64,000 bases of DNA. Origin: Deltaproteobacteria bacterium HGW-Deltaproteobacteria-13. Lineage in GTDB: Bacteria > Desulfobacterota > Syntrophia > Syntrophales > Smithellaceae. The notes under the pieces were generated by a model. The model had not been told where the DNA came from, did no database searches, and saw only the letters and a program-made list of their open reading frames with translations. The stretch is taken from assembly GCA_002840555.1 (NCBI GenBank), contig PHBJ01000005.1:174045-238044 (forward strand), given 5' to 3'. Shown piece by piece: positions 44,805 to 62,563 of the stretch (position 1 is its first letter; every line of letters starts with the position of its first letter). Position numbers and translations under genes: made by a program.

Positions 44805-44952
44805 ACGGTCATCAACACAATATCACTCTTGTCGTATGGTTTTAATTGAAGAGTAGTGTAATTTATAGAATAAGAATAAACAATAAAAAAAGTTGCCGCC
44901 GGTTTAAAATATTTTTCTTCAGACTAATATTCAGCAGCACCGGGACATTTTT

Positions 44953-45039: not shown

Positions 45040-45190
45040 GAGGACGCAGGACTGCGCACAAAATCGCTAGCGGAGAGTAAAAAATATCCGCAAGCCGGAG
45101 TGGAAATCATAAGAATGAAACAATGATAATTACTGCTGTTCCGTATGTGATGACATTGATATCGAGCATCCTGGTGGGTTCGGCTTGTGT

Positions 45191-46903: not shown

Positions 46904-47048
46904 GTCATCACCAATGTGATATCTCCACAGTGCTATGGTTTAAATGGAAAGCGATGTAATTTATAGAAAATAATAGGAATAAACAATAAAAAGTTTTGCC
47001 TTTTGAAATATTTTTCTTTAGGTTTATTTCGAAAAAACCATAACTTTT

Positions 47049-47639: not shown

Positions 47640-47664
47640 TCACCATTCACCATTCACTATTCAC
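47637..47664. repeat. Heptamer tandem array, 4 units of (C/T)ATTCAC (GTGAAT(A/G) on the minus strand)
   Basis: Read directly. The array contains the stop codon of the dehydratase gene (TGA 47649-47647) and the ATG of plsY (47639-47637). Confidence 0.85.
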
Positions 47665-48516
47665 CCTTATCCATTCCGGCGGACACAGCCGTCCCCGCGT
47701 CACATCCTTCATTTGAATGCCGCTGATACTTTCGCATATGAGATCATCCTTATAAATCCACGCGTCAAATATCAACATCTCCTTACTCACGCTCACCGGC
47801 GCAACGTGCCCAATATATTCCTTCCCCTTTTTCGTCTTTTGATAAATTACCCTTTTTTCAAATCCGACGGGAAAGCAAACTTTACCGGCAAAGCGCTGTC
47901 CCCAGACACAGGCCGCGTGCATTGCCGCGTCCATCGGAAACGGAGAGCCGAGCAAACTTTCATCTGCTCCGTAATCCCCTCCCCGAATAAAAGCCCACGC
48001 GCCCTTTGGTGAAACAGATAAATCACCACTGATGTTTTGATAAGCCGCTCCAAAAGGAACCAGTTCATGGTAAATAGTCGCCGCGGGCACGCTGATGTAA
48101 TTTCCTTCCGGTTTATTGACGGCAAGAAAAGGGGGAGTCAATGGCTCGGCAGAATCTGCGGCCGCAAACTCCACCCGGGCATGCTCAACGGTGCGGCTGA
48201 TCGCGCCGGTCTTCGATTTTACCGAAGTTAAAAGAGACGCCGTAACACTTCCCTCACCGGACATTTCCAGGTCGACCATCACCGGCAGGCGCACGGCATC
48301 CGGCGCAATGGTTAAGAAACGTGGGAAACTTGCTCTCTTCAAAATACTTATCTCTGCCCGCGGATAATAGGTTCTAACCGCGCGAGCCATAATAATCAGC
48401 GATTCCACAGCGGGCAGAATTGCTTTACCTTCCAGATGATGATCCATTAGGTATGGATACACATCTTTAGCAATTGAGCAGCGTTTTTTCTGATTTAAAC
48501 GGGGAATGATTTCCAT
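47647..48516 (-). CDS. PKS-type (double-hotdog) dehydratase-like protein
   Basis: HxxxGxxxxP motif in HHLEGKAILP and a second DxxxH motif in PMDAAMH. Start taken at MEIIPRL (48516). Confidence 0.6.
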   Translation of the reverse strand: MEIIPRLNQKKRCSIAKDVYPYLMDHHLEGKAILPAVESLIIMARAVRTYYPRAEISILKRASFPRFLTIAPDAVRLPVMVDLEMSGEGSVTASLLTSVKSKTGAISRTVEHARVEFAAADSAEPLTPPFLAVNKPEGNYISVPAATIYHELVPFGAAYQNISGDLSVSPKGAWAFIRGGDYGADESLLGSPFPMDAAMHAACVWGQRFAGKVCFPVGFEKRVIYQKTKKGKEYIGHVAPVSVSKEMLIFDAWIYKDDLICESISGIQMKDVTRGRLCPPEWIRVNSEW

Positions 48517-48974
48517 ACTTGAACCGTTTTCGGATCCACAGCCACGGGAGTGCCCGACTGATTCAGGGCGCAATGTTTCGTGAAGCCGATACAGATGATA
48601 TGCCCCTTTTCGGCGTGCGTTATCAGGTAATCAAACTGCAAACGCACCCGCTCCAGATTTACCGGCCGCGTGTAGATATACATTACATCATCATAATATA
48701 GAGGCTGATAAAAACTTACGCCCAGATCGAAGATGGGATAAACATAGCCGCTTTCCTCGATTTCCTTGTAAGAGTATGCGATGTCGCGCATCAGAGACGT
48801 CCGGCCGAATTCAAAATAACGCAGATAATTGGAGTGATACACTACTTGTGAGCGGTCTGTGTCAACATACAGGGTCCGGTATGTTGAGCGATGCCAGACA
48901 AGACCGGTTGTCAGGTCGCGCACGTAATGTTCATCATTATTATATATCTCCGGTTTAAAAGGTTTGGGTTTCAT
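48495..48974 (-). CDS. 4HBT hotdog-fold thioesterase
   Basis: YVDTDRSQVVYHSNYLRYFEFGR pattern. Start trimmed to MKPKPF at 48974. Confidence 0.7.
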   Translation of the reverse strand: MKPKPFKPEIYNNDEHYVRDLTTGLVWHRSTYRTLYVDTDRSQVVYHSNYLRYFEFGRTSLMRDIAYSYKEIEESGYVYPIFDLGVSFYQPLYYDDVMYIYTRPVNLERVRLQFDYLITHAEKGHIICIGFTKHCALNQSGTPVAVDPKTVQVWKSFPV

Positions 48975-48976
48975 TC

Positions 48977-50242
48977 TTACACTCCTCTGAAAATAACACA
49001 GCAATTTGTTCCGCCAAAACCGAAAGCATTGGAAAGAGCGATTTCATATTTATGTTTGCGGGCTTCATTGGGGACAACATCAATATCGGATATTTCCGGA
49101 TCGGGTATATGATTGATCGTGGGCAGGATAATATCTTTCTTCATTCCTTCAATCGTCAAAGCAGCTTCGATGGCCGCGGTCGCGCCGAGGGTATGCCCCA
49201 GCTGCGATTTGTTCGAGGACACGGGAATTTTTTCTATTTTTCTGCCGAACACTTCCCGAAGACATTTGACTTCCGCGCTGTCGCCTTTCGGCGTGGAAGT
49301 GCCGTGGGCATTGACATATTGAATATCTTCCGGTTTCAATCCGGCATCCTCAATCGTTTCCCTCATAGCGCGGATGATCGTCGGCATATTGGGGCTGGTA
49401 TAATGATGGGCATCCGATGACCACCCGACACCGAGAACTTCGGCCCTGGGTTTTAGTCCGTAAGCTTTCATCGTCTCTTCCGCCGCCAGAATAACAACAC
49501 CCGCGCCTTCGGAAAGAACAAACCCCTTGCGGTCAACACTGAAAGGCCGTGATGCCAGCGCCGGATTATCATAAGCGCGGTCTTTGGGATTAACCTTGAT
49601 CGTGGCGTTCATGTTGGCAAAACCGTGAATAATCTCCGGCAGGATGGGCGTGTCGACGCCGCCCGCCAGAACAAAATCGCAATCACCGTCCCGGATCATC
49701 CTTGCCCCGATGCCGATCGCGTAGTTGCCCGAAGCGCAGGCGCCCTGCGGCGAAAAGATCGGTCCGGTATATTTCAACAGCATTCCCGCCTTGCCGGAGG
49801 GAAGATTCGCGCATAAATTAGGCAGAAGATAAGGGCTGACCCGGAGCGCCCCGCGGTGTTCCAGATCGTGCACGGCGATGCGAAAAGCATCGGCCCCGTT
49901 GATTGCCGAACCGATAAGACAGGCCATTCGCGGAGCGATTTGAGCGTCAAGGACAATGCCTGAATTCTGCAGCGCCTCCTTGCAGACCGCCATCGTCAAA
50001 ATAACAAAAGCCGCGTTCCAGTTATAAACTTCCTTCGCGTCGGTAAAATCAAGCTCCAGCGGGTACCAGTCGGGTATCTCCCCGACGATATCGCAAGCGG
50101 ATTCCACTTTACAGCGGGTTACCTTGCGAAACCCGGCCTCGCCCTTAATCGCTCGCCTCCACGTTTTTTCAAACGTGCTTCCCAGGGGAGTGGCCGCGCC
50201 GTAACCGACAACAAAAACTTTTCTGTTTTTCGGAGCTTTCAT
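48977..50242 (-). CDS. Beta-ketoacyl-ACP synthase (FabF/FabB-like), KS-1
   Basis: Cys-His-His triad: GACASG, VNAHGTSTP, GHTLGATA. Confidence 0.85.
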   Translation of the reverse strand: MKAPKNRKVFVVGYGAATPLGSTFEKTWRRAIKGEAGFRKVTRCKVESACDIVGEIPDWYPLELDFTDAKEVYNWNAAFVILTMAVCKEALQNSGIVLDAQIAPRMACLIGSAINGADAFRIAVHDLEHRGALRVSPYLLPNLCANLPSGKAGMLLKYTGPIFSPQGACASGNYAIGIGARMIRDGDCDFVLAGGVDTPILPEIIHGFANMNATIKVNPKDRAYDNPALASRPFSVDRKGFVLSEGAGVVILAAEETMKAYGLKPRAEVLGVGWSSDAHHYTSPNMPTIIRAMRETIEDAGLKPEDIQYVNAHGTSTPKGDSAEVKCLREVFGRKIEKIPVSSNKSQLGHTLGATAAIEAALTIEGMKKDIILPTINHIPDPEISDIDVVPNEARKHKYEIALSNAFGFGGTNCCVIFRGV

Positions 50243-50256
50243 ATTTTACCTTTTTA

Positions 50257-50329
50257 TGTCATTTCGAGCGTAGCGAGAAATCTTTTCTCTAAGATTGCCA
50301 CGCCAACCAAGGGTTGGCTCGCAATGACA
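50257..50329. repeat. Palindromic intergenic element (TGTCATTTCGAG ... CTCGCAATGACA), copy 1
   Basis: The outer inverted repeat encloses AATCTT/AAGATT and GCCAACC-AAG-GGTTGGC hairpins. Homologous to 52701-52783. Confidence 0.75.
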
Positions 50330-50334
50330 TTTAT

Positions 50335-51597
50335 TTACTCAGTTCTGCGCAAAACGAGGCAGGAATTGCATCCGCCGAAGCCAAACGCGTTTTTCAGCAC
50401 AAACTCCTGTTTTACAATTCTTGCGCCCTCGGCAACACAGTCAATTTCAATTTCCCTGTCAGGGATATAATTAATAGTGGGCAGCAATGTGTCTTTAAGC
50501 ATCCCTTCCATAGCCAGGATGGCTTCGATAGCGCTGGACGCGCCCATCGCGTGGCCAAGTTGCGATTTATTCGCCGATACCGGAGGCATTTTAGAACCGA
50601 AGATGTTACGCAAAGCATCGGCTTCCACTTTATCGCCAATTTTTGTCGAGGTCGCGTGCGCGTTTACCGCGTCAACGTCTTCGGGATGTAATCCACTATT
50701 GGCAATGGTTTCCTTGATGCATCTTTGCACCGTTGTCAAATTAGGCGAAACAAAATGACTGGCGTCGGAGGTCATGGACCATCCGCTCATTTCTATCTTT
50801 GATTTGAGCCCATGGGCTTTCGCAAATTCGTCGGTTGCCAGAATAACGCAGCCGGCGCCTTCGGAAACGACAAAGCCGCGCCGGTTCGCGGAAAAAGGCC
50901 GGCTCGTTTTTTCCGGAGGTTCTTCCATCTGTCCTTCTTTCGGACGGTACGCGCCGTTCATCGTGGCAAATCCGGCAACAATCGGCTCCACCAGAGGAAA
51001 ATCCACAGCGCCGCCGATCACGACGTCCGCCATATTTCTCTGCAGCAGCATCTCACCGACAATCAGCGAAGTAATTCCGGTAGCGCAAGCCGTAATGGTC
51101 GAGCTGATCGGTCCTGTCGCTCCCGTAAGAATGGAAACCTTGCCGCCGACCATATTAATGCAGGAATTGGGATTGGTAAAAGGATGGGGCATTTTGCCTT
51201 CAGCGATCATCAGTCGATCAGCCTGCAGAACCGCGTCCAGTCCGCCGACCGCTGAACTAAAGGTAACCGCCACCCGCGGCGCAATTTCCTTCGTAATAAC
51301 AATTCCACTTTTTAACAGGGCCCGATGAACAACCAGCAGGGCGTATTTAAAGATAGGAGAGGTCCAGTGCGCCAAATCTCGAGGCTGTAAAAAAGGATAC
51401 TGACGAGTATCCACCTCGGCCACTTCACCGGCGACACGCACCGGGAAGCCTTCAGTTAATGGAAATCTGGTCAACTTCCCTATTCCGCAATTTCCGGCGA
51501 CAGCCCGCTGCCATTGAGTATCCAGATCCGTCCCCAAAGAAGATACGGCATCGTAACCCAATATTAATGTTTTCTTTGAACCCATTACCACCTTCAT
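50335..51597 (-). CDS. Beta-ketoacyl-ACP synthase, KS-2
   Basis: Cys-His-His triad: TACATG, VNAHATSTK, GHAMGASS. Confidence 0.85.
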   Translation of the reverse strand: MKVVMGSKKTLILGYDAVSSLGTDLDTQWQRAVAGNCGIGKLTRFPLTEGFPVRVAGEVAEVDTRQYPFLQPRDLAHWTSPIFKYALLVVHRALLKSGIVITKEIAPRVAVTFSSAVGGLDAVLQADRLMIAEGKMPHPFTNPNSCINMVGGKVSILTGATGPISSTITACATGITSLIVGEMLLQRNMADVVIGGAVDFPLVEPIVAGFATMNGAYRPKEGQMEEPPEKTSRPFSANRRGFVVSEGAGCVILATDEFAKAHGLKSKIEMSGWSMTSDASHFVSPNLTTVQRCIKETIANSGLHPEDVDAVNAHATSTKIGDKVEADALRNIFGSKMPPVSANKSQLGHAMGASSAIEAILAMEGMLKDTLLPTINYIPDREIEIDCVAEGARIVKQEFVLKNAFGFGGCNSCLVLRRTE

Positions 51598-51683
51598 AAA
51601 AGAGATAAAAAAGCTTCTCCTGCTAAAAAGAGCAAGCGGGTTACGTTGATTCCCAAAATGCCTATATCAAAAATTGTCGGGGA

Positions 51684-52682
51684 TTACCAAGGAATAAAGT
51701 GGTACAACTTTGCAAACATTTCATAGACTTCGATCCAGTTTTGTAAATCTTTGGCCGATTTCATGTGTTCGCGTTTGTTGACCATGACCCAGCTCATATG
51801 CGCCGCGCCATCTTTGCAGGTGGAACAGTCGCGTGTTGCCGAAGTGCAACAGCGATGAACCGTTTTTAAATCGGAAGCCCAGCGGGAAAAATGAATTAAA
51901 CGGCGGGGACGATTTGTTCGATGATCAAGCGACTCCGTAACCGACGGGCATTCGTTCCAGCCAAAGTCCCGTCCCATCATTTTCCCCGTGGTAATCACTT
52001 CGTGATAGTATTTGCAGGAAATTACAGTTTGCGGATAATGATCGAGCATTTCGTCCATCTCCTGGCGCAAATCTTTCAGTTCGCCCTCGCGCCACGAAAA
52101 GCCGTCAACACGTTCATCATTCGATAAAAGCTGCAGATGTACTTTTAAGCCGACGTCGGCAATTCTTTTAATGACCGGTTCAATCTTGCCCACCTGACGG
52201 GGCGTTAAGGTAAAAAGATAATAAGTGTAAGCGTCTCCTTCATAATTCTTACTGGAAATGGCAAAAGTGTCACGCCCGCGAAGGATTTTCTCATCTTCTC
52301 CGCCGCCCCAGAGGGAAATTCCCACCATCATATCGGGGAATTTTTCCCGGGGAACCTTGATCAGACCGTTGGTGGCGCAATAGGTGGGCAGGCGCTTATA
52401 AAAAGCTTCAACGCGATCCATGCAGAGCGTGGGCTCCCCGCCGATCAAAATCGCCAGATTCACTCCCCGTTCTTTTTCACGGTCAATGAAATCTTCCCAC
52501 TTTTTTATGTCCATTTCCTCTTCGGCCGCCTGATGTTCTCCCGAAGAAAAGAAAAAACAGCCTTTGCAGCGCAAATTGCACCGGTTGGTTACATCATATA
52601 TGGAACTGCGGATATTAAGTGTTGAGATTCGTCTGTATCTCTCATGCCAGTCTTTATCCAGCAAAGAACTAACTGTTTTCAT
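51684..52682 (-). CDS. Radical SAM protein, HpnH-like architecture (rSAM-1)
   Basis: CNLRCKGC (CxxxCxxC), GGEPTL, CATNG, and a C-terminal Cys-rich tail CCTSATRDCSTC that resembles the HpnH C-terminal extension. Confidence 0.65.
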   Translation of the reverse strand: MKTVSSLLDKDWHERYRRISTLNIRSSIYDVTNRCNLRCKGCFFFSSGEHQAAEEEMDIKKWEDFIDREKERGVNLAILIGGEPTLCMDRVEAFYKRLPTYCATNGLIKVPREKFPDMMVGISLWGGGEDEKILRGRDTFAISSKNYEGDAYTYYLFTLTPRQVGKIEPVIKRIADVGLKVHLQLLSNDERVDGFSWREGELKDLRQEMDEMLDHYPQTVISCKYYHEVITTGKMMGRDFGWNECPSVTESLDHRTNRPRRLIHFSRWASDLKTVHRCCTSATRDCSTCKDGAAHMSWVMVNKREHMKSAKDLQNWIEVYEMFAKLYHFIPW

Positions 52683-52700
52683 TCATACTACCCTTAATTA

Positions 52701-52783
52701 TGTCATTTCGATCCGGCGTTTGCCGGGGAGAAATCTTTTCTTCAAGATTGCCACGCCCCGACAAGTCGGGGTTTGCAATGACA
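52701..52783. repeat. Palindromic intergenic element, copy 2
   Basis: tatgtcatttcga ... gagaaatcttttcttcaagattgccacgcc ... CCCCGAC-AA-GTCGGGG ... tgcaatgaca. The internal hairpin differs in sequence from copy 1 but still pairs. Confidence 0.75.
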
Positions 52784-52791
52784 TTCTTTTT

Positions 52792-53892
52792 TTACGATAG
52801 CGCCGCTTGCGGCGGTTCTATAGTTGCAGCGCAAAGATTTTCGCCCTTCTCATAACCCATCACCCAGACAGCCAGATAGGTGTCCACATAATCCAGCCAG
52901 GATTTAAAAGTATCAAGATTGCCCGCATGACGGTATAGCCGCGCCGTGACCACCGCTGAACCGGCGGCGTAATGACGGCAATCGCGACAATCCGTGTCCG
53001 GCACACAGCAGGCAACCGATCGGTCCCAGTTAAGATCCGTTCTGTATTGCCTGAAAGACCTTCCCAACCCGATATCCTGTGAAGGATTCTGACGGGGATA
53101 TGAACAGCCGTAAAGGTCATGCAAACCTTTTTGATGCGTATGCGCCACGGCGTTGTAAGCCGAAAAGAGAATGTTGCGCGGATATATATTCAAAAGCTCT
53201 ATCATCATCTGCCGTGTCCGGCTGAGAGATTCATCATCATGCCGCAGATTCCCCGTGTAACCGACCGGCGAGGAAAAGACGTTAAACGTTAATTTACACC
53301 CGTGGGCGACAAGCCGGGCGGCAACTTCTTTCACCTCATCTATATTTTCCCGCGTGAAGGTGTAAACAAAAACAGCGCGCGGATCATTTTCGTAATTCTC
53401 AATCTGTTTTTTCAAAAGATCTTTGGCCTTTCTGATTCTCAGGCTGGTTTCATCATTGCCCCAGACGGAAATATGCAGTTTATAGCCAACGGATGAAGAA
53501 ATTTTTTTAAACCCGTTGGTGGCAATACTGCCAAGCGGCATTTCCAGATAGCACGCATCCAGCAGCTGGGGCACTAAAGAAGGCTCCGCTCCCGCCAGAA
53601 CCACGTAAGTAATGCCGCGCGCTTTTTCCGCCCGCATCAGCTCGCGCCACGCCGCCGCGTCGCCAATCTCCCGGGCAAACTGTTTTTCGCCTTCAAAATA
53701 ATAACAGCCGTCGCATCGAATATTGCAGCGATTGGACATGTCGTAAGTTGATTCCCGCAGAAAAAAATATTTCCTCACCTTTTCCCAACGTGCTTTGACT
53801 TCCGGATGGGCTAAAAGTTCGGAAAATTTCGGCTTGGCTGATTCCTGAGTTACTTTATTATGAACAGGCATAGACCTATTTGCTTCTATCAA
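52792..53892 (-). CDS. Radical SAM protein, HpnH-like architecture (rSAM-2)
   Basis: CNIRCDGC, AGAEPSL, ATNG, and a C-terminal CCVPDTDCRDCRHY. Paralog of rSAM-1. Confidence 0.65.
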   Translation of the reverse strand: MIEANRSMPVHNKVTQESAKPKFSELLAHPEVKARWEKVRKYFFLRESTYDMSNRCNIRCDGCYYFEGEKQFAREIGDAAAWRELMRAEKARGITYVVLAGAEPSLVPQLLDACYLEMPLGSIATNGFKKISSSVGYKLHISVWGNDETSLRIRKAKDLLKKQIENYENDPRAVFVYTFTRENIDEVKEVAARLVAHGCKLTFNVFSSPVGYTGNLRHDDESLSRTRQMMIELLNIYPRNILFSAYNAVAHTHQKGLHDLYGCSYPRQNPSQDIGLGRSFRQYRTDLNWDRSVACCVPDTDCRDCRHYAAGSAVVTARLYRHAGNLDTFKSWLDYVDTYLAVWVMGYEKGENLCAATIEPPQAALS

Positions 53893-54165
53893 TTAATTTT
53901 TCGTGGCAATCTTTTCTTCAATATATTCGGCAATCAGACGAATCGTTTTCAACCTGGGATAATCGTCTTCATCAATGGCGATCCTGTATTCATCCTGCAG
54001 GACTAAGGCAATCGTTGCCAGATCCATGCTGTCAATGCCCAGTTCATCCACCAGATCCATATCCGGATTGAATGTATCCGCTGTAACCTCTTCCAGTTTA
54101 AGCTCATCAATAATGATTTCGGCCACGTGCCGTATAATGCCTTCGATATCGTGATTTACAGGCAT
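53893..54165 (-). CDS. Acyl carrier protein (ACP-1)
   Basis: LGIDSMDL phosphopantetheine-attachment motif. Start trimmed to MPVNHD after GGAGG. Confidence 0.8.
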   Translation of the reverse strand: MPVNHDIEGIIRHVAEIIIDELKLEEVTADTFNPDMDLVDELGIDSMDLATIALVLQDEYRIAIDEDDYPRLKTIRLIAEYIEEKIATKN

Positions 54166-54189
54166 CCCTTCCCTCCTTACCATGCTTAT

Positions 54190-54573
54190 TTATATTTTTT
54201 TATCACTTATTTTTTTTGCAATCATCAAACCACTGCACACAATATTTTCTTTTCTTATCACTTTAAACGAAAACAAAATATCTCCGCCTGCTTCTTCACC
54301 TGTTACGATTACCGAAAGTGTTTCTCCCGGCCTCACCGGTTGAGTGAATCTTACTCTTCTGAGCGACTGCAATTGAACGCACGTCCCTTTTGCCTGTGCG
54401 TCCCGGATAATTGCCTGTTCGACTATATTAACCAAAGCGATTCCCGGAAGAATCGGCTCACCCGGGAAATGACCTGAAAACCAGGGGGAATCAGCCGGCG
54501 CATCCGCTAAAGCTTCAATATGATTATTATTAATTGCCTTTATTTCTTTTAACAAACTCCATTGATTTTCCAA
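54190..54573 (-). CDS. FabZ-like hotdog dehydratase
   Basis: FSGHFPGEPILPGIAL motif. Apparent TTG start. Confidence 0.7.
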   Translation of the reverse strand: MENQWSLLKEIKAINNNHIEALADAPADSPWFSGHFPGEPILPGIALVNIVEQAIIRDAQAKGTCVQLQSLRRVRFTQPVRPGETLSVIVTGEEAGGDILFSFKVIRKENIVCSGLMIAKKISDKKI

Positions 54574-54786
54574 TAAACAGACCCCATTACCCCATCACAG
54601 CGTTAACTTCACGCCCAAAAGAGGTAATTCATATCATCGATTGTTTTTTCAATCAAAATTTTTTTATAACGTCAATAAAAATAATTAAACTCAAATTTTA
54701 GAAGTTAACACTTTTTTGTGAAAGGATCAGGATATCCCTTGTTTGATCGATAATATTTCTATTCATACAGAATCTACAGGGTGTTC

Positions 54787-56280
54787 TTAATTATTCTTTG
54801 CCGGATCATGGAACTCATTCAAACCGGCCAGGTATTTCATATCCGTCCGGTAACGTTCTTCCCATCCTTGTTTTGCCTGTCTGCGGCCGACAGTAAGCTT
54901 CAGCAAAGGGCGCAGCACATATGTCCAAAACGGCACCCACAGGCCTCCCTTGCTTCTGAACAGTTTGGAAGGCTCCCACCACCCGAAAATCTTCTGCCTG
55001 TGCAGCCAGACCAGATATTGCAATTGCTCCGTCTCGAGATGCCGGGTTTTAACATTGGCGCTGATGCCGTTGTATCTCTTGTAATCGTACGGATTGGTCA
55101 CCATTCCCTGATCCAGCAGTTGCTGACGCACCTCCGTCTTCGGATAGGGAGTCAGAATCTGGCAGTAGGGTATATCCGCGTCCAGCGCTTTCATAAACTT
55201 ATAGTTTTCAATAATATCCGCTTCGTCATCGTCCGGAAAACCGAAAATCAATCCGGCAATGACCATAATGCCGTATTTGTGGCATATCTGAACAGCTTTG
55301 CGCGATGCCTCCACGATATCGCCTTTGTGCGATACAACCAAGTTTTTCCGGGATACACTTTCAATCCCTAAAAAAATGGTTTTCATTCCCGCGAGAGACA
55401 TTTTACGCACCATCTCTTCGTTTCTGGATATGGAAACACAATCGGCCTGGACGTTGAGTTTCAGTCCCTTGTAATTGCGGGCGATGATCGCGTCACAAAT
55501 ATGAATGACCCGTTGGGGATCAAGCACCAGGTTGTCATCGACAATAAAAATCATGCGGGTCTTAAGGTTGTAATAAATGTCATCGATATCCGCCAAAACC
55601 CTTTCAATGGGGAACGTCCGAAAGGTCGGTCCATACATATGGTTCATGCTGCAAAAAGAACAGGTTCTGGTGCATCCCCGGGATGTCTCCATGACCTCAG
55701 CTTTCGAAGTTACGATATGATATCCTGACGTCAGGCGGCGTTTATCCCGGATGGGGATTTTAAGCCGGGAGAGATCCAGCAGTTCTCCTCTGGGATTGTG
55801 GACAAACTGCCCCCCGTCTTTATAAGACAGAGAAGGAATGTCTTCCAGCCGGTCCTTGTCCTCCAGCGCGTTTACCAGCCTCCGGAAGGATTCTTCGCCT
55901 TCTCCCCGGACCATGAAGTCGATCAGGCCGGCCTCGCTAGACGAGGCAATTTGTTCATACATCAGTGTGGCATGATATCCACCGATGACAATTTTTACTT
56001 CCGGCACAAGGCGCCGGATAAAACGGATTATTTTGATACAGGTCTCATACTGCCATGTCATGGCGGATAAACCAACCAGTTGTGGACGGATTTTAAGCAG
56101 GAGTCGTCTCAAATATCCGGTAAGATGCCTGCGTTTACGAATAAGATCGACAATAAAAATATCATGGCCGGCATCGATGTTGGCGCCTAAACTGGCAATT
56201 CCGCAATTGGATAAATGAAAGGCGCTTGCGTGCATAATCATCGGAATCACGTCCGGCATGGACATCAGAATAATTTTCAT
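54787..56280 (-). CDS. B12-binding-domain radical SAM protein (class B), B12-rSAM-1
   Basis: N-terminal Rossmann-like cobalamin-binding-type domain, then CTRTCSFC. 497 aa. Confidence 0.75.
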   Translation of the reverse strand: MKIILMSMPDVIPMIMHASAFHLSNCGIASLGANIDAGHDIFIVDLIRKRRHLTGYLRRLLLKIRPQLVGLSAMTWQYETCIKIIRFIRRLVPEVKIVIGGYHATLMYEQIASSSEAGLIDFMVRGEGEESFRRLVNALEDKDRLEDIPSLSYKDGGQFVHNPRGELLDLSRLKIPIRDKRRLTSGYHIVTSKAEVMETSRGCTRTCSFCSMNHMYGPTFRTFPIERVLADIDDIYYNLKTRMIFIVDDNLVLDPQRVIHICDAIIARNYKGLKLNVQADCVSISRNEEMVRKMSLAGMKTIFLGIESVSRKNLVVSHKGDIVEASRKAVQICHKYGIMVIAGLIFGFPDDDEADIIENYKFMKALDADIPYCQILTPYPKTEVRQQLLDQGMVTNPYDYKRYNGISANVKTRHLETEQLQYLVWLHRQKIFGWWEPSKLFRSKGGLWVPFWTYVLRPLLKLTVGRRQAKQGWEERYRTDMKYLAGLNEFHDPAKNN

Positions 56281-56354
56281 ATTGCCCCGACTCTCTCTGT
56301 CGTCACAATTCCAAACATATCAACGATAATTCTTAGGAGGTAACCATCCTTTTT

Positions 56355-57179
56355 TTAGCCGGCAGTTGCGTCATGCCGGCATTTCACCGCCATCATTTCT
56401 CTATCAATCAAAAAAGAAAGAGGCACAATTTTAAAACCATTGCCAATAAGTCCCTGCAATATTTTTTCAATCTCCGGCAATAAAATATCGCTGTCCTCTT
56501 TTTTACGCGGCGGTATGTCATGAAGGACGATAATATCGTCGGCCTTTACCTTCTTAAGTATTTTGGAGGCTAAATGTCCAACGCGGCGATTGCCGGCATC
56601 AAAAGCGCGGCAGCTGAAAGTTACACAGAACATTCCCAATTTATCCAACACCTGCGGCAGTTTGGGGCTGATGATGCCCACCGGAGGCCGGAAGGACATG
56701 GCATTCACGCCCATCTCTTTTAAAACTTCCTGAGCCCTGAATATTTCCTGATAAAGATAATTATAATTTCCCAGCATTAAAAAAGGATTATGATGGAAAG
56801 AATGATTGCCGATCGTGTGGCCGCGGGCGATTATTTCTTTGATTATTTCCGGATGCTTCAGTGCGTTTACGCCGGAAACAAAAAAAGTCGCTTTGACTGA
56901 ATACTTATCCAGCAAAGCCAGTATTTGTCCCGTTGTCGGCTCCGCCGGGCCATCGTCAAAAGTGAGCGCGACCAGATTTTGTCCGGTATGGCCGTGACTG
57001 ATCACAGGGAGGTAAAAATTGCTCTGCGGGAAAAAAGAGGCCGCGACACAGAGGATAATATAAAAAAAGGCAATGGCCGCAGCCAGCAGTGAGTTCATAA
57101 AAAAAACAACCGCGGCTGAAGATAAAAGAATTATTCCTGTGATTTGAGCGGGACTGGCAGACAAAAATTTGTTTTTCAT
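56355..57179 (-). CDS. NodB-type polysaccharide deacetylase family protein with an N-terminal membrane anchor
   Basis: TFDDGP and GNHSFHH motifs. Two N-terminal hydrophobic helices. Confidence 0.8.
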   Translation of the reverse strand: MKNKFLSASPAQITGIILLSSAAVVFFMNSLLAAAIAFFYIILCVAASFFPQSNFYLPVISHGHTGQNLVALTFDDGPAEPTTGQILALLDKYSVKATFFVSGVNALKHPEIIKEIIARGHTIGNHSFHHNPFLMLGNYNYLYQEIFRAQEVLKEMGVNAMSFRPPVGIISPKLPQVLDKLGMFCVTFSCRAFDAGNRRVGHLASKILKKVKADDIIVLHDIPPRKKEDSDILLPEIEKILQGLIGNGFKIVPLSFLIDREMMAVKCRHDATAG

Positions 57180-57390
57180 TGATCATTCCTTGAAAAACAT
57201 AGTACGGGTTTTTCAACTCGTCAAAGCTCAGCTAAAACCACACACTACATTATTATTTTTTCCGCTTCCCTATGCGAGCGGAGAAACAAAGGAAATCCCG
57301 ATGTTCTACCCTTCCTCGATCCCTCCCCTCAAACGCGGGAAGAAATACATGGATTCCCGCCAAAATCACGCGGGAATGACAGCGGAGTTT

Positions 57391-58743
57391 TTATTGAATC
57401 AGGTACTCCCACAAAGGACCCGTAAAACCGCGTCTGTAGAGCTTGGGCAAAATGCGTGTCGCCTTGGCTTCACCCGCGCCGATAATCCAGTTCAGACGGC
57501 CGTTGGCGTGATTTTCCACCGTCTGCATAATTTCCTGAGCGGTTATTTCCGGCGAACGGTAAAAGACGGGCGACAGGATATTTTGTTCCGCGGTAATTTG
57601 ACCCTCGCGCAGGGCGACATCATATAAAGCCGTGTGCGGGTATACGCGGACGCCGCAAAAAAAGAAGAAAACGGCCTTTTCGAGATTATCGATTCCGGCC
57701 AATGTTTTTTGCAGAGTCTCTTTGTTTTCGCCGGGCCCGCCCAGTAAAAAATAATGGGCAACATGCAATCCGGCGGCGAGCGCTTCCTGATGAGCGGCAA
57801 AAACATCGGCCCGAGCAAAAGGCTTGCGTAAGCTGGCCAGCACCTTTTCCGATAAAGACTCCGTGCCGAATTCCACATGCGTCAGTCCGGCATCCTTCAT
57901 CAGTTTAAAATAATCGGCCGGTGGAACAGTGGGAGCAAAAAAACCTCCCCATGGAATGGATACGCCCGCTCTTATAAACGCCTCCGCGACCTGCTTGCTG
58001 TGATCATAACTGGCGTTGAAGGCGGAATCGGTTATAAAAATATATTTGGCGCCCGCGTCCTGCAATTCCCGGGCGCTTTTGGCCACTTCACGCGGCGGGA
58101 AAAACCGCATCCGGCTGCCTTCAATGTGAGGATAAGTGCAGTAACTGCAATGAAAAGGGCAACCCCGTTTTGTTTGCAGGTTGAGCATGCCGCCGTAGGA
58201 CAGATAAAATCGGGCGTGAGTGCTTTCCGGATCGAAACGCCTGTTCATCGCGCCGTCATACGGTTCATAAACGACAGCCGTTTTTTCTTTTGTCAGGACG
58301 CCGGGGATCTGTTTCACATCCTCTTTTTTCTCCAGCGCATCAAGCAGCAGTGAAAATCTCTCGCCTTCGCCGGCAATGCCATAATCGGCATCCAGCGCCT
58401 GCATGAACTCAACGGGAAAAATAGTAAAACCGCTGCCGCCCAGAATTATCCGGGCCTTTGAATTCGTCCTTATCTGGCGGATCAAATTCTGATATTCGGG
58501 CAGGAATCCTTTGCAGTTTATTACATCGGTGTTATCAATATTCCTGATGGATACGCCGGCAAAATCGGGAGAAAACTCCCGGATCATCGCCTCCAGGCCC
58601 TCCGGATAGGTAAAATCGTTTAAATCCACAATTTTAGTCTGATAACGGGAATCCAGGGAACCGGCAACATAGTCCAACCCCAGCGGATATACCGGATAGG
58701 GAATTCTCAGAGTATTTGCCGAAATGAGCAGAACTTTCATCAT
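57391..58743 (-). CDS. B12-binding-domain radical SAM protein (class B), B12-rSAM-2
   Basis: MKVLLISANT...PLGLDYVAG N-terminal domain, then CPFHCSYC. Start trimmed to the ATG pair at 58743/58740. Confidence 0.75.
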   Translation of the reverse strand: MMKVLLISANTLRIPYPVYPLGLDYVAGSLDSRYQTKIVDLNDFTYPEGLEAMIREFSPDFAGVSIRNIDNTDVINCKGFLPEYQNLIRQIRTNSKARIILGGSGFTIFPVEFMQALDADYGIAGEGERFSLLLDALEKKEDVKQIPGVLTKEKTAVVYEPYDGAMNRRFDPESTHARFYLSYGGMLNLQTKRGCPFHCSYCTYPHIEGSRMRFFPPREVAKSARELQDAGAKYIFITDSAFNASYDHSKQVAEAFIRAGVSIPWGGFFAPTVPPADYFKLMKDAGLTHVEFGTESLSEKVLASLRKPFARADVFAAHQEALAAGLHVAHYFLLGGPGENKETLQKTLAGIDNLEKAVFFFFCGVRVYPHTALYDVALREGQITAEQNILSPVFYRSPEITAQEIMQTVENHANGRLNWIIGAGEAKATRILPKLYRRGFTGPLWEYLIQ

Positions 58744-58797
58744 AGGAATAACAACGCGCAAAATGCTTACAGGTCATGGTTTCGCGCAAGCTGAAAA

Positions 58798-59067
58798 TTA
58801 ACCTTTTTTCTGATTCTTGGCAATGTGAGCAGCCAGCGCGCGCACGGAAGCGAAAACTTTTACGCCCAGTTCCTTGCTTTCGATTTTAACGCCATAGTCT
58901 TTCTCAATCATCATCACCAGTTCCAGCACATCAATGGAATCAATCCCCATATCGCCGCCGACAAGTTGCGCATCATCCTTAATATCTTCGGGTCCAACGT
59001 CAATCAGCCCCAGTGTTTGAATAATTTTAACCTTAAGTTCACCAACCAGTTCTTCAATGTCACTCAT
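58798..59067 (-). CDS. Acyl carrier protein (ACP-2)
   Basis: MGIDSIDVLEL attachment motif. 89 aa. Confidence 0.8.
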   Translation of the reverse strand: MSDIEELVGELKVKIIQTLGLIDVGPEDIKDDAQLVGGDMGIDSIDVLELVMMIEKDYGVKIESKELGVKVFASVRALAAHIAKNQKKG

Positions 59068-59121
59068 TTAATACTCCTGCTCTTATATCAAAATTTCACT
59101 TTCATTTTTTGTATGAATTTT

Positions 59122-59511
59122 CTAATATTCCATTTGGTTTGCCGTAATTTTTTCAACGTCTTTCCCTAGAATTTTTTCCAGCACAATTCTCGCTAACCAT
59201 TTCCCAAGCGTTCTCGCGTAGTCGGCGCCAGTCAGGTACATTCCCAGTATCAGAAGCAACCAGGAAAAACCATAAGAAACCGGAATTCCAATAACACCAA
59301 TCAACGGTTTCTTCAACTTCACGGCGATTAATCCTATTACAAAAAATGCCGGCACGACAAAAAAAACACTTAAAATAATTAAGATAAGACCGATGATGAC
59401 CGGCAAAGTATTCTTTTCTTTTATAATGCTTAAATCAGTCTTCTCGATTATAGCGGTCCTGCAAAATTCTTTTCGGGCAAAATAAAACGCCGCTTTTTTT
59501 ATTATATTCAA
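59122..59511 (-). CDS. Small membrane protein, unknown function
   Basis: Two to three hydrophobic helices. I recognise no motif. Confidence 0.5.
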   Translation of the reverse strand: MNIIKKAAFYFARKEFCRTAIIEKTDLSIIKEKNTLPVIIGLILIILSVFFVVPAFFVIGLIAVKLKKPLIGVIGIPVSYGFSWLLLILGMYLTGADYARTLGKWLARIVLEKILGKDVEKITANQMEY

Positions 59512-59587
59512 AATATTTCCTTAAAAAAAATAAGTTAAATATTTTTCAAACGGAAATTTCGGACAAAAAAATTGATAATCGGCTTCG

Positions 59588-60178
59588 TTACCTTTCCATG
59601 ATTCCGCCGACGGAATGTTTGGAACGAAGCGGGTAATCTTTGTAGGCAATATCTTTAAAAACGCCCGTTCGCGCCTGACCGACGGTAGCAATCAATTCAT
59701 TATCAATATATATGCGCCCGTCACCAATGACTATGCTCGCGCCTGATTCCTTTAACTGCGAATAACGTCGCACATCAATTTCAAAACGGACACATTTGTT
59801 AAACGGACGAATCTGACCGTTAAAAGCGACCTCGCCGCATCCCAGCGCCCTGCCCGTCCCCAGCGAACCTTTCCAGACGCAGAAAAAACCAAGCAGTTGC
59901 CAGATCGCGTCCACGCCCAGACATCCGGGCTGTACCGGATCGCCGTGAAAGTGGCATTGAAAATACCAGGCGTCCAGCCTTATATCCTGTTCGGCAATTA
60001 TTTTACCCTTCTTCCCGTCGCTTTCAATCAATAATATGCGATCCACCATAAGAAAGGGAGGCGCAGGAAGTTTCGCGTCAAAATGTTCAGGAGGATCACC
60101 AATCAGCCTTCCGTAAGAAAAAGCGAGAAGTTCTTCGAAACTAAAATGATCACGTTTTAAAAATTCCTGATACTTCAT
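59588..60178 (-). CDS. fabA: 3-hydroxyacyl-ACP dehydratase / trans-2-cis-3 isomerase, FabA-type
   Basis: LPAPPFLMVDRI, WYFQCHFHGDPVQPGCLGVDAIWQL and GRALGCGEVAFNGQ align closely with my recollection of E. coli FabA. Confidence 0.85.
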   Translation of the reverse strand: MKYQEFLKRDHFSFEELLAFSYGRLIGDPPEHFDAKLPAPPFLMVDRILLIESDGKKGKIIAEQDIRLDAWYFQCHFHGDPVQPGCLGVDAIWQLLGFFCVWKGSLGTGRALGCGEVAFNGQIRPFNKCVRFEIDVRRYSQLKESGASIVIGDGRIYIDNELIATVGQARTGVFKDIAYKDYPLRSKHSVGGIMER

Positions 60179-60515
60179 AATAATTCTTTCTCTTTTTAGT
60201 GAACGGGAAATATTATTAATGATCTCCGGACAAAAAGTTTATTCCAGCATTGATTTGGATGCCCGGACTGCAAAAACCGCTACGAGAAATTGTAAGGCCC
60301 GATTTTCATTTTAATTTAGGTCAATTATAGGAAAAGGGTTCTTTTGTCAAAAGAAAAATGTCCCAGAAAAAGTCATCAAGAATAAAGGGCCCTAATCGGA
60401 TAAATATAAAAAGATTAATTTCTTACGCAACAATATATCTCATAAAATTTAATGGTGCTGGAATTAAAATTGGGTTATAACAGCCCCATTAAAAAAGTTA
60501 CAAAAAGGAGAACAA

Positions 60516-61202
60516 ATGAACAGAGCCGCTCTTCATAAAATCAGTTACGGTCTATATATCGTCACATCCGGGCAAGACGGTAAATTCAACGGTCAGATTG
60601 CCAACTCCATGTTTCAGGTTACATCAAATCCGGCAACCGTGGCCATCAGCATAAATAAAGAAAATTACACTCATGAACTCATTAAACTCAGCCGTAAATT
60701 TGTCGTCTCGATTCTGTCCGAAGCGGCGCCCATGACTTTCATCGGCCTTTTCGGCTTTAAAAGCGGGCGCGATGTCGATAAACTGAAAAACGTAAAAACA
60801 AAAACTGCGGTAACCGGCGTGCCCATCGTCCTGGAAAATACGGTCTCCTATATGGAAGTGGAAATGGAAAAAGAATTAGATTGCGGCACGCATACTATCT
60901 TCGTCGGCAACATTGTCGATTGCGACGTTGTGAACGACGCCGAACCTATGACTTACGCCTATTATCAAAACGTCAAAGGGGGCAAATCATCGAAAAACGC
61001 TCCTACTTATGTAAAAGATGAACCTTCCGCCGCTCCGCACAGCGCAGCCAGTTACGTTTGCAGCGTTTGCGGTTATGTTTATGATCCGGATAAAGGTGAT
61101 CCGGATAACGGCGTCGCTCCGGGAACAAAATTTGAAGATTTGCCGGAGACCTGGACATGTCCTGTCTGCGGCGCTGATAAATCGAAGTTTGAAAAAGAAT
61201 AG
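60516..61202 (+). CDS. Flavin reductase-like domain fused to a C-terminal rubredoxin (high-molecular-weight rubredoxin type)
   Basis: N-terminal flavin-reductase-like fold. C-terminal [10 protein letters not shown]...[10 protein letters not shown]. Confidence 0.8.
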
Positions 61203-61247
61203 CAACAGCCTCGGATTAAATGAACCTCTCCAAAGCAAACTGCGGGG

Positions 61248-61286
61248 CCTCCCTGACCCCTCCCTCGATGGGAGGGGTCAGGGAGG
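61248..61286. repeat. Perfect 17-bp inverted repeat CCTCCCTGACCCCTCCC / GGGAGGGGTCAGGGAGG
   Basis: Read directly, 5-nt loop, 46 nt after the upstream stop codon. No U-tract. Same family as 1011-1044. Confidence 0.8.
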
Positions 61287-61421
61287 ATGAAGTACCGAAC
61301 CGCAAGTTCGTCACCCCCACCTAACCTTCCCCGTCAAGGGGGAGGGATCTAAACGATAACCCCTTGGCAAGTTTATGAGAATGCCAGTTAAAAGGATTAA
61401 AATCAGCAAATAAAATATTCC

Positions 61422-61450
61422 TTGACTTGTAGACGACCGGTCTATTATAC
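61422..61450 (+). promoter_or_regulatory. Promoter TTGACT-N17-TTATAC with an embedded TAGAC-N5-GTCTA dyad (candidate TetR operator)
   Basis: Read directly. The dyad at 61430-61444 contains the palindrome GACCGGTC. Confidence 0.4.
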
Positions 61451-61480
61451 TTCCCGGCAAATTGCAACTAAGGGGGGGGT

Positions 61481-62563
61481 ATGGATATTTACGAACGATT
61501 AAGAGAAATTCTGGATTCGCATCCGGCAACGGCGCCAAAAGCAAAATCAATCAATGAGATATTAAGCATACTTTTCACACCGGAGGAAACAGCCCTCGCC
61601 GTAAACATGAGTTTTAAAACCAAAAGCGTATCCGTCATAGCCAAGGCGGCCGGAACAACTGAAAGTGAAGCAAAGCAAAACCTGGAATCCATGGCTAATA
61701 AAGGAATTATTCTTTCCAAAAATAAAAATGGAGAAAAATTATACGCTTTGCTTCCGCTGATTCCTGGCGTGTTTGAGTTTCCCTTTATGAAAGGCGGCCA
61801 GACGCCCATGCACAAAAGACTGGGCGAGCTTTGGGAAGAATATCATCATGAGGCCCTCGGCACATCATTTTCAGGCCAACCGACTCCACTCATGAGAGTG
61901 GTTGCCGTGGAAAAATCCATTACGGCGGAAAACCGTATTCATCCGTATGAAGAGGTCAGGAATTTTATCATGGACGCGAATTACATTGCACTGACTAATT
62001 GCGCCTGCAGGGTCAGCGTGGCCAAATGTGACAAACCCAGGGAAGTCTGCCTGATTTTCGATGCAACTGGAGAATTCCTGGTCGAAAGAGGATTTGCGCG
62101 ACAGATTAGCAAGGAAGAAGGGATGAAGGTTCTTGATCAGGCGGAAGAAGCGGGGCTGGTGCATACCAGCAATAACAGTTCCGATCACGCTCTTTTGATC
62201 TGTAATTGTTGCCCCTGCTGCTGCACGGTTTTACGGGGGAGAACCCAATTAAAACATGTTCATGCCTTTGAGCCCAGCCGTTTCCTGGCGCGGGTCAAGG
62301 GTGAAGATTGCAACGGCTGCGCCATCTGCGCCGATAATCGCTGTCCGATGAAGGCGATTGAGATCAAGGACAATGTTGCCGTCATTCATGAGGCGGAGTG
62401 CATCGGCTGCGGCCTCTGTGTGACCGGCTGCCCGGCCGAAGCGATTGTTCTAAAGGAAAGAGAGCCGTTGCCTCCTCTGCCGGCCACAGTGACGGAAATG
62501 GGAGCGAAAGTCCTTCAGGAAAAAGGCAGGCTTGACGCTTTCCTGAAGATTATGCAAAGCTAG
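61481..62563 (+). CDS. 4Fe-4S dicluster domain protein with a CNCCPCCC cluster
   Basis: CNGCAICADNRCP and CIGCGLCVTGCP motifs. Paralog of 16458-17531. Confidence 0.7.
   Translation: MDIYERLREILDSHPATAPKAKSINEILSILFTPEETALAVNMSFKTKSVSVIAKAAGTTESEAKQNLESMANKGIILSKNKNGEKLYALLPLIPGVFEFPFMKGGQTPMHKRLGELWEEYHHEALGTSFSGQPTPLMRVVAVEKSITAENRIHPYEEVRNFIMDANYIALTNCACRVSVAKCDKPREVCLIFDATGEFLVERGFARQISKEEGMKVLDQAEEAGLVHTSNNSSDHALLICNCCPCCCTVLRGRTQLKHVHAFEPSRFLARVKGEDCNGCAICADNRCPMKAIEIKDNVAVIHEAECIGCGLCVTGCPAEAIVLKEREPLPPLPATVTEMGAKVLQEKGRLDAFLKIMQS

Follow-up and report, generated by a model that had tools for sequence, protein, structure and literature searches.

Gene content of the locus

We analysed a 64,000-nucleotide stretch of DNA (the window) from Deltaproteobacteria bacterium HGW-Deltaproteobacteria-13, namely, positions 174,045 to 238,044 of contig PHBJ01000005.1, which is contig C6 of the genome referred to here as G000 (3.5 Mb, 100% complete). 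Our subject is a trio of genes within it, that is, two class B (cobalamin, or B12, domain) radical SAM enzymes, termed B12-rSAM-1 and B12-rSAM-2, and the membrane-anchored NodB-fold deacetylase that they flank, termed NodB. This arrangement had been described in an initial annotation of the sequence, and the open reading frames (ORFs), domains and motifs that we find bear it out; the two intergenic gaps that were pointed out at the same time also lie where they had been placed. The trio belongs to a single long gene run on the minus strand (43101-60178), from FabA to a pair of GT-C-fold proteins, with the following features:

59588-60178, minus strand: FabA, from a profile match; the sole FabA of the genome
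59122-59511, minus strand: orf129, a small membrane protein, from its hydrophobicity
58798-59067, minus strand: ACP1, an acyl carrier protein (ACP), from a domain match
57391-58761, minus strand: B12-rSAM-2, class B radical SAM enzyme of family TIGR04072, from Pfam and NCBIfam
57180-57390, minus strand: structured intergenic spacer with a REP-like hairpin (TCATTCCCGCG, loop, CGCGGGAATGA), from folding and repeat counts
56355-57179, minus strand: NodB, membrane-anchored CE4 (NodB-fold) deacetylase, from PF01522
56281-56354, minus strand: 74-nt spacer between NodB and B12-rSAM-1, particular to the window, the upstream edge of an insertion, from the homology boundary
54787-56280, minus strand: B12-rSAM-1, class B radical SAM enzyme of an unnamed, highly conserved family, from PF02310 and PF04055
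54679-54786, minus strand: AT-rich piece (29% G+C) 3' of B12-rSAM-1, particular to the window and not kept in relatives
54575-54678, minus strand: ancestral NodB-hotdog intergenic block, candidate regulated internal promoter, from conservation in 11 same-genus genomes
54190-54573, minus strand: FabZ/ApeI-like single hotdog dehydratase of 127 aa, from PF07977 and PF22818
53893-54183, minus strand: ACP2, from a domain match
52792-53892, minus strand: rSAMa, non-B12 radical SAM protein, paralog of the tandem rSAMb, from a domain match
51684-52682, minus strand: rSAMb, non-B12 radical SAM protein, paralog of the tandem rSAMa, from a domain match
47049-51597, minus strand: two ketosynthases (KS1, KS2), 4HBT thioesterase, PKS-type double-hotdog dehydratase and PlsY, from domain matches
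47049-47639, minus strand: PlsY, the sole PlsY of the genome, from a genome-wide search
43101-46903, minus strand: two tandem GT-C-fold membrane proteins of 570 and 567 aa, ~50% identical, from AlphaFold2 and Foldseek

The closest loci and proteins are those of Smithella and Smithellaceae metagenome-assembled genomes, and near-identical DNA is present in groundwater metagenomes.

B12-rSAM-2 and NodB are parts of a conserved lipid module

B12-rSAM-2 carries the domains PF04055 (82 bits) and PF02310 (49 bits) and the motif CPFHCSYC, and is the sole protein of the genome to match TIGR04072 above the cut-off (401.4 bits against 360), over model positions 1-443 of 443. This family (rSAM_ladder_B12), which NCBIfam describes as "lipid biosynthesis B12-binding/radical SAM protein", is named after the anammox ladderane cluster. 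The ORF encodes 456 aa from a TTG start at 58761; position 58743, where the initial annotation had ended the gene, corresponds to the first ATG and is the probable start, although the ORF itself extends beyond it. The neighbourhood of the gene is lipid-synthetic, with ACP, FabA, hotdog protein and ketosynthases, and its best solved relative in a search of the Protein Data Bank (PDB) is the tryptophan methylase TsrM (6wte). Two roles were considered for B12-rSAM-2, namely, that it might be a mid-chain methylase (10-methyl fatty acids) or an sp2-carbon methylase, as its likeness to TsrM and BzaD would suggest.

NodB, with 274 aa, matches PF01522 (Polysacc_deac_1) at 102 bits against a gathering score of 23.1, and the families that it matches are CE4 families only. 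The CE4 motifs TFDDG, HSFHH, RPP and LHD are intact in an alignment to solved deacetylases, with another residue in place of the Trp of motif four, and an N-terminal hydrophobic stretch (residues 13-53) has room for two membrane helices. NodB reaches no named CE4 equivalog, namely, PdaB (118 bits, cut-off 237), NodB TIGR04243 (99, 240), PgdA (99, 400) and PdaA (82, 298), and its best 120 homolog matches are all Smithella proteins.

Conservation of gene order was assessed in 20 related genomes, over 20 kb surrounding the TIGR04072 gene, with the following results. First, the run from FabA to PlsY is whole in 11 of 13 same-genus (Smithella) loci, at 60-95% identity, the remaining two retaining the FabA-to-NodB end only; in the same-genus loci it is flanked by the same genes, flavin reductase-rubredoxin and PfkB, and it is also kept in several other Syntrophales genomes. 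Second, orthologs of B12-rSAM-2 are 76-84% identical across the 13 same-genus clusters, and those of ACP2, rSAMa and rSAMb are 83-94% identical in the same clusters and 63-80% in other families. Third, NodB comes directly after the TIGR04072 gene in 12 of the 13 same-genus loci and, with NodB 48-49% identical, in four other Syntrophales families; in other genomes NodB also adjoins FakA/DegV, LpxL-type acyltransferase, PlsY or orf129 genes. B12-rSAM-2 heads a conserved module made up of ACP, TIGR04072, NodB, hotdog, ACP, two radical SAM proteins, two ketosynthases, thioesterase, dehydratase and PlsY, and NodB is a core partner of the TIGR04072 module in Syntrophales. Since the only PlsY and the only FabA of the genome lie inside it, the cluster is linked to the synthesis of bulk phospholipid and not just to that of a secondary product.

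Turning to the smaller members of the module, the best PDB match of the 127-aa hotdog protein is 3esi (2e-11), and a specific assignment to the anammox amxFabZ type was rejected, as the amxFabZ entries (~1e-6) score no better than ordinary FabZ. A PDB search with ACP1 gave no telling match. A repeat search found two 30-nt intercistronic elements, 93% identical, at 50275-50304 (KS2/KS1) and 52728-52757 (rSAMb/rSAMa).

At a larger scale, that is, in an even sample of 301 Desulfobacterota genomes, TIGR04072 is present in 76 (E <= 1e-90), 55 of them above the cut-off. The scores are bimodal, with groups at 565-672 and 353-426 bits, the enzyme of the window belonging to the lower one; as the two groups are only 33-37% identical and differ in gene context (L153-L156), the one "equivalog" model may cover two functions. 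High-scoring TIGR04072 genes of other Desulfobacterota are also located within aryl-polyene-type clusters.

Co-occurrence with an aryl-polyene-like partner module

A partner module of aryl-polyene-like type is found in G000 outside the window, on other contigs, where it is split over three loci:

C28:4066-23821 (L150), G000: aromatic amino-acid lyase, thioesterase, FakA/DegV, family 2 glycosyltransferase (GT2), MMPL exporter-methyltransferase fusion, LpxL-type acyltransferase, ACP, ketosynthase, chain length factor (CLF)-like protein and two B12 radical SAM enzymes
C17:51082-53566, G000: hotdog gene, FabG, LolA-like protein and lipoprotein
C17:71537-73821, G000: ACP, ketosynthase and PlsC-type acyltransferase, without B12-rSAM-1

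By domain content only, the core set of aryl-polyene (ape) type, that is, ketosynthase, CLF, ACP, dehydratase, ketoreductase and MMPL transporter, is all present across these loci. The partner and TIGR04072 modules are contiguous in five other genomes (G153, G216, G349, G351 and G142). The pathway GT2 on C28 has PpgS, a polyprenyl-phospho-GalNAc synthase, as its best NCBIfam match (84 bits, below the cut-off), and scores 21.6 bits against HpnB, with a cut-off of 379. The C28 operon also has a BtrH_N/DUF4872 protein, an ABC-2 transporter and, in its middle, a Na+/H+ antiporter gene.

Among 61 relatives, 42 have TIGR04072 (E <= 1e-60), and NodB orthologs and the aryl-polyene-type GT2 are each present in 41. 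NodB and GT2 are both present in 40 of these genomes, one only in 1 and 1, and neither in 19 (Fisher 1e-13), the corresponding figures for NodB and TIGR04072 being 40/1/2/18. All 36 Syntrophales relatives with TIGR04072 above the cut-off have NodB, and three near-complete same-genus genomes are without NodB, TIGR04072 and GT2 alike. NodB orthologs occur in 21 genomes of the phylum sample, 17 of which have TIGR04072. The same pattern appears repeatedly, in several families and under differing gene orders. NodB and TIGR04072 are gained and lost together with the aryl-polyene-like module, and the CE4 deacetylase is a fixed partner of one TIGR04072 subfamily. The initial annotation had made its proposal of a head-group function depend on co-conservation with the fatty acid synthase (FAS)-like genes, which for NodB and B12-rSAM-2 holds throughout the order.

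The most plausible role of NodB, a membrane-tethered, motif-intact CE4 enzyme that tracks the aryl-polyene-type GT2, is to de-N-acetylate the GalNAc-type head group that this GT2 would install. That NodB is instead a deacetylase of the common kind, acting on peptidoglycan or exopolysaccharide, and just happens to adjoin lipid genes is very improbable: its best matches are indeed of the PdaB, NodB and PgdA type, but it reaches none of the CE4 equivalog cut-offs, is nearly one-to-one with TIGR04072 and the GT2 and lost with both, and from family to family has other genes of this lipid system as its neighbours. The suggestion that the cluster may build or remodel an amino-sugar head group receives indirect support, as the module that accompanies the cluster, and in several families borders on it, has a GT2 and two lipid acyltransferases, and the characterised aryl-polyene lipids carry GalNAc-phosphate-glycerol; it is plausible, and now tied to concrete partners.

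B12-rSAM-1 is nested within NodB-bearing genomes

B12-rSAM-1, of 497 aa and single copy in the genome, carries PF02310 B12-binding (62 bits) and PF04055 Radical_SAM (60 bits) domains and the motif CTRTCSFC. It reaches no named NCBIfam family, the best being BchE (180.9 bits, cut-off 481), HpnR (140.1, 650) and HpnJ (104.6, 577.6), and its nearest solved relatives in the PDB are OxsB and TokK. Its orthologs are 64-84% identical across orders of Desulfobacterota.

The distribution of this family can be summarised as follows. First, it is present in 7 of 36 same-genus genomes, in none of the 13 same-genus TIGR04072 clusters, and it is missing from the slot between NodB and the hotdog gene in all relatives. 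Second, every genome with B12-rSAM-1 has NodB, both in the phylum sample (11/11, from 6 families, where NodB overall is found in 21/301) and among the relatives (12/12). Third, when the 46 genomes with TIGR04072 in the score range of the window's enzyme are taken, B12-rSAM-1 is present in 10 of the 16 with NodB and in none of the 30 without it (p = 2e-6). This second B12 enzyme family occurs only where NodB exists, and B12-rSAM-1 therefore probably acts after NodB.

The gene neighbourhoods were surveyed in the best 80 of 329 B12-rSAM-1 loci from species genomes. In Desulfobacterales the gene ends an operon of 4HBT thioesterase, FakA/DegV fusion, GT2, LpxL-type acyltransferase, ACP, ketosynthase and PlsC-type acyltransferase, beside which the opposite strand holds another B12 radical SAM enzyme, a lipoprotein, a LolA-like protein, FabG and a hotdog gene. 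A module of TIGR04072, hotdog, ACP and radical SAM pair lies 5-10 kb from B12-rSAM-1 in ~15 Desulfobacterales loci. In G142 and G059, B12-rSAM-1, with or without its ACP-ketosynthase-acyltransferase partners, is joined to the far end of the TIGR04072 module, and in two other families (L136, L146) it is found inside the TIGR04072 cluster at another position. The expected co-conservation with the FAS-like genes thus stands for B12-rSAM-1 insofar as it is nested in NodB-bearing genomes, but not as regards its place, since apart from this genome only L136 and L146 have it within the cluster. Its substrate may be either the sugar or an acyl chain.

The NodB-hotdog slot and its candidate internal promoter

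In several relatives NodB and the hotdog gene are 140-290 nt apart, and in other genomes the slot has taken up unrelated cargo: an opposite-strand short-chain dehydrogenase/reductase (SDR) in four, and elsewhere an AbiE-like toxin-antitoxin pair plus an Hsp70-like gene, a different (DUF4070-type) radical SAM protein or AT-rich DNA with small ORFs. Since cargo varies in sister genomes and B12-rSAM-1 is found only here, the bracketing of NodB by two class B enzymes is an order private to this genome. Homology to other Smithella loci of B12-rSAM-1 covers the coding sequence and ~19 nt before the start codon only; the gene was inserted in the orientation of the operon, no mobile-element signature was seen around the insertion, and the spacer at 56281-56354 has no terminator-like site on the minus strand. 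It is the coding sequence of B12-rSAM-1 alone, sitting between NodB and a conserved candidate internal promoter, that creates the bracketing picture. Within the genus, the NodB-hotdog spacer is a hot spot for insertions (L119 10193-13760; L125 12169-14098; L121-L123, L129).

As the slot also collects unrelated cargo, such as the AbiE-like pair and the SDR, the placement of B12-rSAM-1 could be accidental, in which case the gene would have landed in a hot spot with no functional tie to NodB or B12-rSAM-2. This would fit the sister-genome slots, which are empty or filled as described, the low frequency of the gene in the genus, and the fact that most Smithella copies are solitary among housekeeping genes (TruA, RmlD, CarB, aminotransferase). 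However, we regard incidental juxtaposition as improbable, because the nesting within NodB-bearing genomes holds across 6 families, because B12-rSAM-1 has joined the same system independently in the Desulfobacterales superclusters, L136 and L146, and because it lies in the operon's own orientation.

The 213-nt gap downstream of B12-rSAM-1 (54574-54786; 31% G+C), for which an internal promoter had been suggested, is in two parts: 108 nt after B12-rSAM-1 that occur in this genome only and include a sigma-70-like consensus match from 54722 to 54695, and a last 104 nt that represent the ancestral NodB-hotdog spacer. The ancestral block contains TTGACG (54675-54670), the near-perfect palindrome TTGATTG-N6-CAATCGA (54656-54637) and the extended -10-like TGATATGAAT (54636-54627). 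The core TTGACG ... TTGATTG-N6-CAATC(A/G)A ... TGATATGAAT hardly varies among 11 Smithella genomes, and the block is kept also in genomes without an insert or with opposite-strand inserts. As in several genomes opposite-strand genes were inserted upstream of the block, the genes downstream must start from it, which, together with its -35 and extended -10 boxes and its palindrome, supports the suggested promoter. The palindrome is probably an operator, for a lipid regulator. As a genome-wide regulon motif it was rejected, with 34 sites at <=2 mismatches versus 15 in shuffles, and one other site at 1 mismatch.

The other gap, the 211-nt spacer between B12-rSAM-2 and NodB, had been described as filled with repeat and hairpin sequences, in agreement with its folding into hairpins (-68 kcal/mol, z = -2.56) and with its copy of a dispersed REP-like hairpin, whose 12-mer arm GTCATTCCCGCG is present 36 times in 3.5 Mb, with <1 expected. 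Members of this hairpin family consist of GTCATTCCCGCG, a short loop and CGCGGGAATGAC, and a genome-wide count of the form TTCCCGC-N-GCGGGAA gave 38 hairpins. The length of the spacer in relatives ranges from ~30 to 400 nt. A permissive Rfam scan of 42800-61500 gave no riboswitch in either gap, its only hit being a chance match of CRISPR-DR10 in B12-rSAM-1 (E = 0.19).

The GT-C-fold proteins

The 570- and 567-aa proteins at the end of the run have no Pfam or NCBIfam match. They have ~9-10 hydrophobic segments and a conserved DPEYxY stretch after helix 1. When the AlphaFold2 model of the 570-aa protein (pLDDT 87.6, pTM 0.90) was compared with the PDB using Foldseek, the top 26 matches were all GT-C enzymes, whose fold combines an N-terminal multi-helix membrane domain with a soluble C-terminal one (probability 0.99-1.0, TM-score 0.25-0.48), with AftB, ArnT, STT3, ALG9, PglB and PMT among those named. 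The label "GT-C-like" given to these proteins by the initial annotation is therefore supported by a confident predicted model that matches GT-C glycosyltransferases only.

The two genes, with a low G+C of 39%, are missing from this site in 19 of the 20 related loci. In the same-genus clusters PlsY abuts PfkB directly, except in the close relative G001, which has a single copy at the same site; in the window the gene is duplicated. The family is present in 12 of 36 same-genus genomes, mostly elsewhere in the genome, and is rare: a collection of 5.8 billion proteins contains 74 clusters of it. The GT-C pair is a lineage-specific, accessory addition, and not a core part of the cluster.

Comparison with characterised lipid pathways

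In the part of review PMC13459092 that summarises Schmerk et al. (2015), HpnI, HpnK and HpnJ are presented as steps of bacteriohopanepolyol cyclitol ether synthesis. The initial annotation had seen in the trio, with the downstream GT-C-like proteins, a loose parallel to this late hopanoid tailoring, which in terms of homology did not survive. Neither squalene-hopene cyclase (TIGR01507) nor HpnK (TIGR03473) has a match anywhere in the 100%-complete genome, NodB included, and neither class B enzyme reaches the cut-offs of HpnR (TIGR04367), BchE (TIGR02026) or HpnJ (TIGR03471), the HpnJ scores of B12-rSAM-1 and B12-rSAM-2 being 104.6 and 82.4 bits against 577.6. Membership of the trio in the Hpn system was rejected on these grounds. 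That its genes are true homologs of HpnI, HpnK and HpnJ acting on hopanoids is extremely unlikely, given that only the general gene types agree (glycosyltransferase, deacetylase, B12 radical SAM), whereas NodB is a CE4 enzyme and the nearby glycosyltransferases are of GT-C fold and not conserved in the cluster. The order of the chemistry could nonetheless be analogous, in that an N-acetyl-hexosamine would be added and deacetylated before a B12-domain radical SAM enzyme acts, albeit with an acceptor lipid that here would be derived from fatty acids or polyenes.

Candidate "ladderane" clusters of FAS-II type were described in 2009 in Kuenenia stuttgartiensis and Desulfotalea psychrophila (Rattray et al. 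2009, PMC2649909). The Kuenenia cluster includes the B12 radical SAM enzyme Kuste2803 and the polysaccharide deacetylase Kuste3351, and Desulfotalea, with a syntenic cluster, makes no ladderanes (PMC2649909). Surveys based on antiSMASH have since found "ladderane" clusters of unknown function across many non-anammox phyla (PMC9902471), and in reviews of 2023-2026 the B12 enzyme is still regarded as an uncharacterised or putative ladderane synthase (PMC10139942, PMC13459092, PMC13598231). Our cluster shares with those of Kuenenia and Desulfotalea dedicated ACPs, a FabZ-like hotdog protein, FabF-like ketosynthases and a further radical SAM pair (PMC2649909; Dietl et al. 2023, PMC10139942), and with that of Kuenenia also a polysaccharide deacetylase. 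It differs in that no phytoene-desaturase-like gene was seen here, the hotdog protein is not specifically amxFabZ-like and the host is not an anammox bacterium. We give very little credence to the reading that the cluster makes ladderane (cyclobutane) lipids with B12-rSAM-2 as "ladderane synthase". The enzyme does score above the TIGR04072 cut-off, and the Kuenenia clusters also contain a B12 radical SAM enzyme (Kuste2803) and a polysaccharide deacetylase (Kuste3351); however, TIGR04072 is widespread in Desulfobacterota, Desulfotalea makes no such lipids, the enzyme of the window falls in the divergent, lower-scoring group, and its hotdog partner is no closer to amxFabZ than to ordinary FabZ.

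The aryl-polyene lipids (APELs) of Xenorhabdus carry a GalNAc-phosphate-glycerol head group put in place by the GT2 ApeJ (bioRxiv 10.1101/2020.12.19.423268). The genes listed for the ape clusters of Xenorhabdus doucetiae and E. coli CFT073 are without radical SAM, CE4 deacetylase, FakA/DegV fusion and PlsY/FabA module (bioRxiv 10.1101/2020.12.19.423268). What the partner module has in common with them is ketosynthase, CLF-like protein, ACPs, hotdog dehydratase, FabG-type reductase and thioesterase and, further, an LpxL-type acyltransferase (ApeD-like), a small GT2 (ApeJ-like), an MMPL exporter with methyltransferase, a LolA-like carrier and an aromatic amino-acid lyase.

A second point of comparison is provided by ArnC/ArnD/ArnT and by PpgS with Rv3779, where a GT2 acts on polyprenyl phosphate, followed by deacylation and then by a GT-C transferase. 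The genome has a small GT2 whose best match is PpgS, a membrane-tethered NodB-fold deacylase, and GT-C proteins that resemble the ArnT/AftB fold. On the other hand, the GT2 falls well short of the cut-offs of PpgS and ArnC, NodB has no ArnD match, and the GT-C genes are missing from most genomes with NodB and GT2.

A proposed envelope-lipid pathway

With slightly better than even confidence, we propose that the trio are parts of a multi-locus, specialised envelope-lipid pathway, that is, the widespread "ladderane-type / aryl-polyene-like" radical SAM system of anaerobic Desulfobacterota, in which NodB would de-N-acetylate the head group and the B12 enzymes would tailor the lipid. That a single pathway is distributed over several loci is shown by the gene company. 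In such a pathway, acyl chains would be built on the dedicated ACPs by FabA, ketosynthases and dehydratases, and tailored by the radical SAM enzymes while ACP-bound, after which PlsY would hand them to glycerol-3-phosphate. The pathway GT2 would install a hexosamine (GalNAc-like) head group, from which membrane-anchored NodB would remove the N-acetyl, leaving an amine open to acylation, further modification or charge. B12-rSAM-1 would contribute an accessory, cobalamin-dependent tailoring, either C-methylation or rearrangement, with a substrate available only after NodB has acted. The GT-C proteins, as a recent add-on, may transfer a lipid-linked sugar at the outer face of the membrane.

Several observations weigh against this proposal, in addition to the unrelated cargo of the slot and the solitary Smithella copies of B12-rSAM-1 mentioned above. 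The substrate proposed for NodB follows from fold, family and gene company. The GalNAc of the characterised aryl-polyene lipid stays N-acetylated (bioRxiv 10.1101/2020.12.19.423268). In the phylum sample, ~30 of the 46 genomes with the same type of TIGR04072 are without NodB, so that deacetylation is not essential to the core chemistry. The co-occurrence counts take no account of phylogeny or shared ancestry, and the sequencing runs in which B12-rSAM-1 was found are DNA metagenomes only, with groundwater as the likely source, and include no RNA run.

The alternative closest to the hopanoid parallel keeps the logic from HpnK to HpnJ without its homology: B12-rSAM-1 would act directly on the amino sugar freed by NodB, and contraction, rearrangement or methylation of the sugar ring would give a cyclitol-like or modified hexosamine head group on a non-hopanoid lipid. 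This we consider possible but unlikely. It would account for the strict nesting of B12-rSAM-1 in NodB-bearing genomes and for its position directly after NodB here, across a 74-nt spacer free of terminator-like sites; non-methylating class B enzymes (BchE, HpnJ, OxsB) are among its best matches, and the sequence HpnI, HpnK, HpnJ has been described (PMC13459092). Yet the matches to BchE and HpnJ are far below cut-offs, the methylases HpnR, PhpK and TokK score similarly, and B12-rSAM-1 mostly comes after the ACP-ketosynthase-acyltransferase trio, a position that favours the acyl part over the sugar.

A bolder and doubtful version, to which we assign a low probability, would make NodB and B12-rSAM-1 a dependent pair, in which NodB exposes the hexosamine amine on an aryl-polyene-like or radical-tailored glycerolipid and B12-rSAM-1, as a new cobalamin radical SAM family, rearranges or C-methylates the amino sugar, with GT2 and GT-C proteins completing an Arn-like route in this lineage. 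If true, head-group chemistry of the HpnK/HpnJ type would for the first time be found outside hopanoids.

As regards the B12 supply, no match to CbiC (PF02570) was obtained in the 100%-complete G000, which has ~36 matches to a B12-domain radical SAM model, and the organism may, on this single marker, be dependent on imported corrinoids.

The window alone represents a modest result, namely, a typical family member in which one gene has moved in a lineage-specific manner. What the TIGR04072, or "ladderane-type", clusters do chemically has been in question since 2009. Cultured Desulfosarcina strains, such as D. variabilis Montpellier and D. widdelii PP31 (loci L079 and L065), carry B12-rSAM-1 with adjoining aryl-polyene-like genes (ketosynthase, thioesterase), which would make lipid analysis practical, unlike in anammox bacteria. 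The TIGR04072 family itself is common in non-anammox anaerobes, where it is tied to aryl-polyene-like lipid modules.

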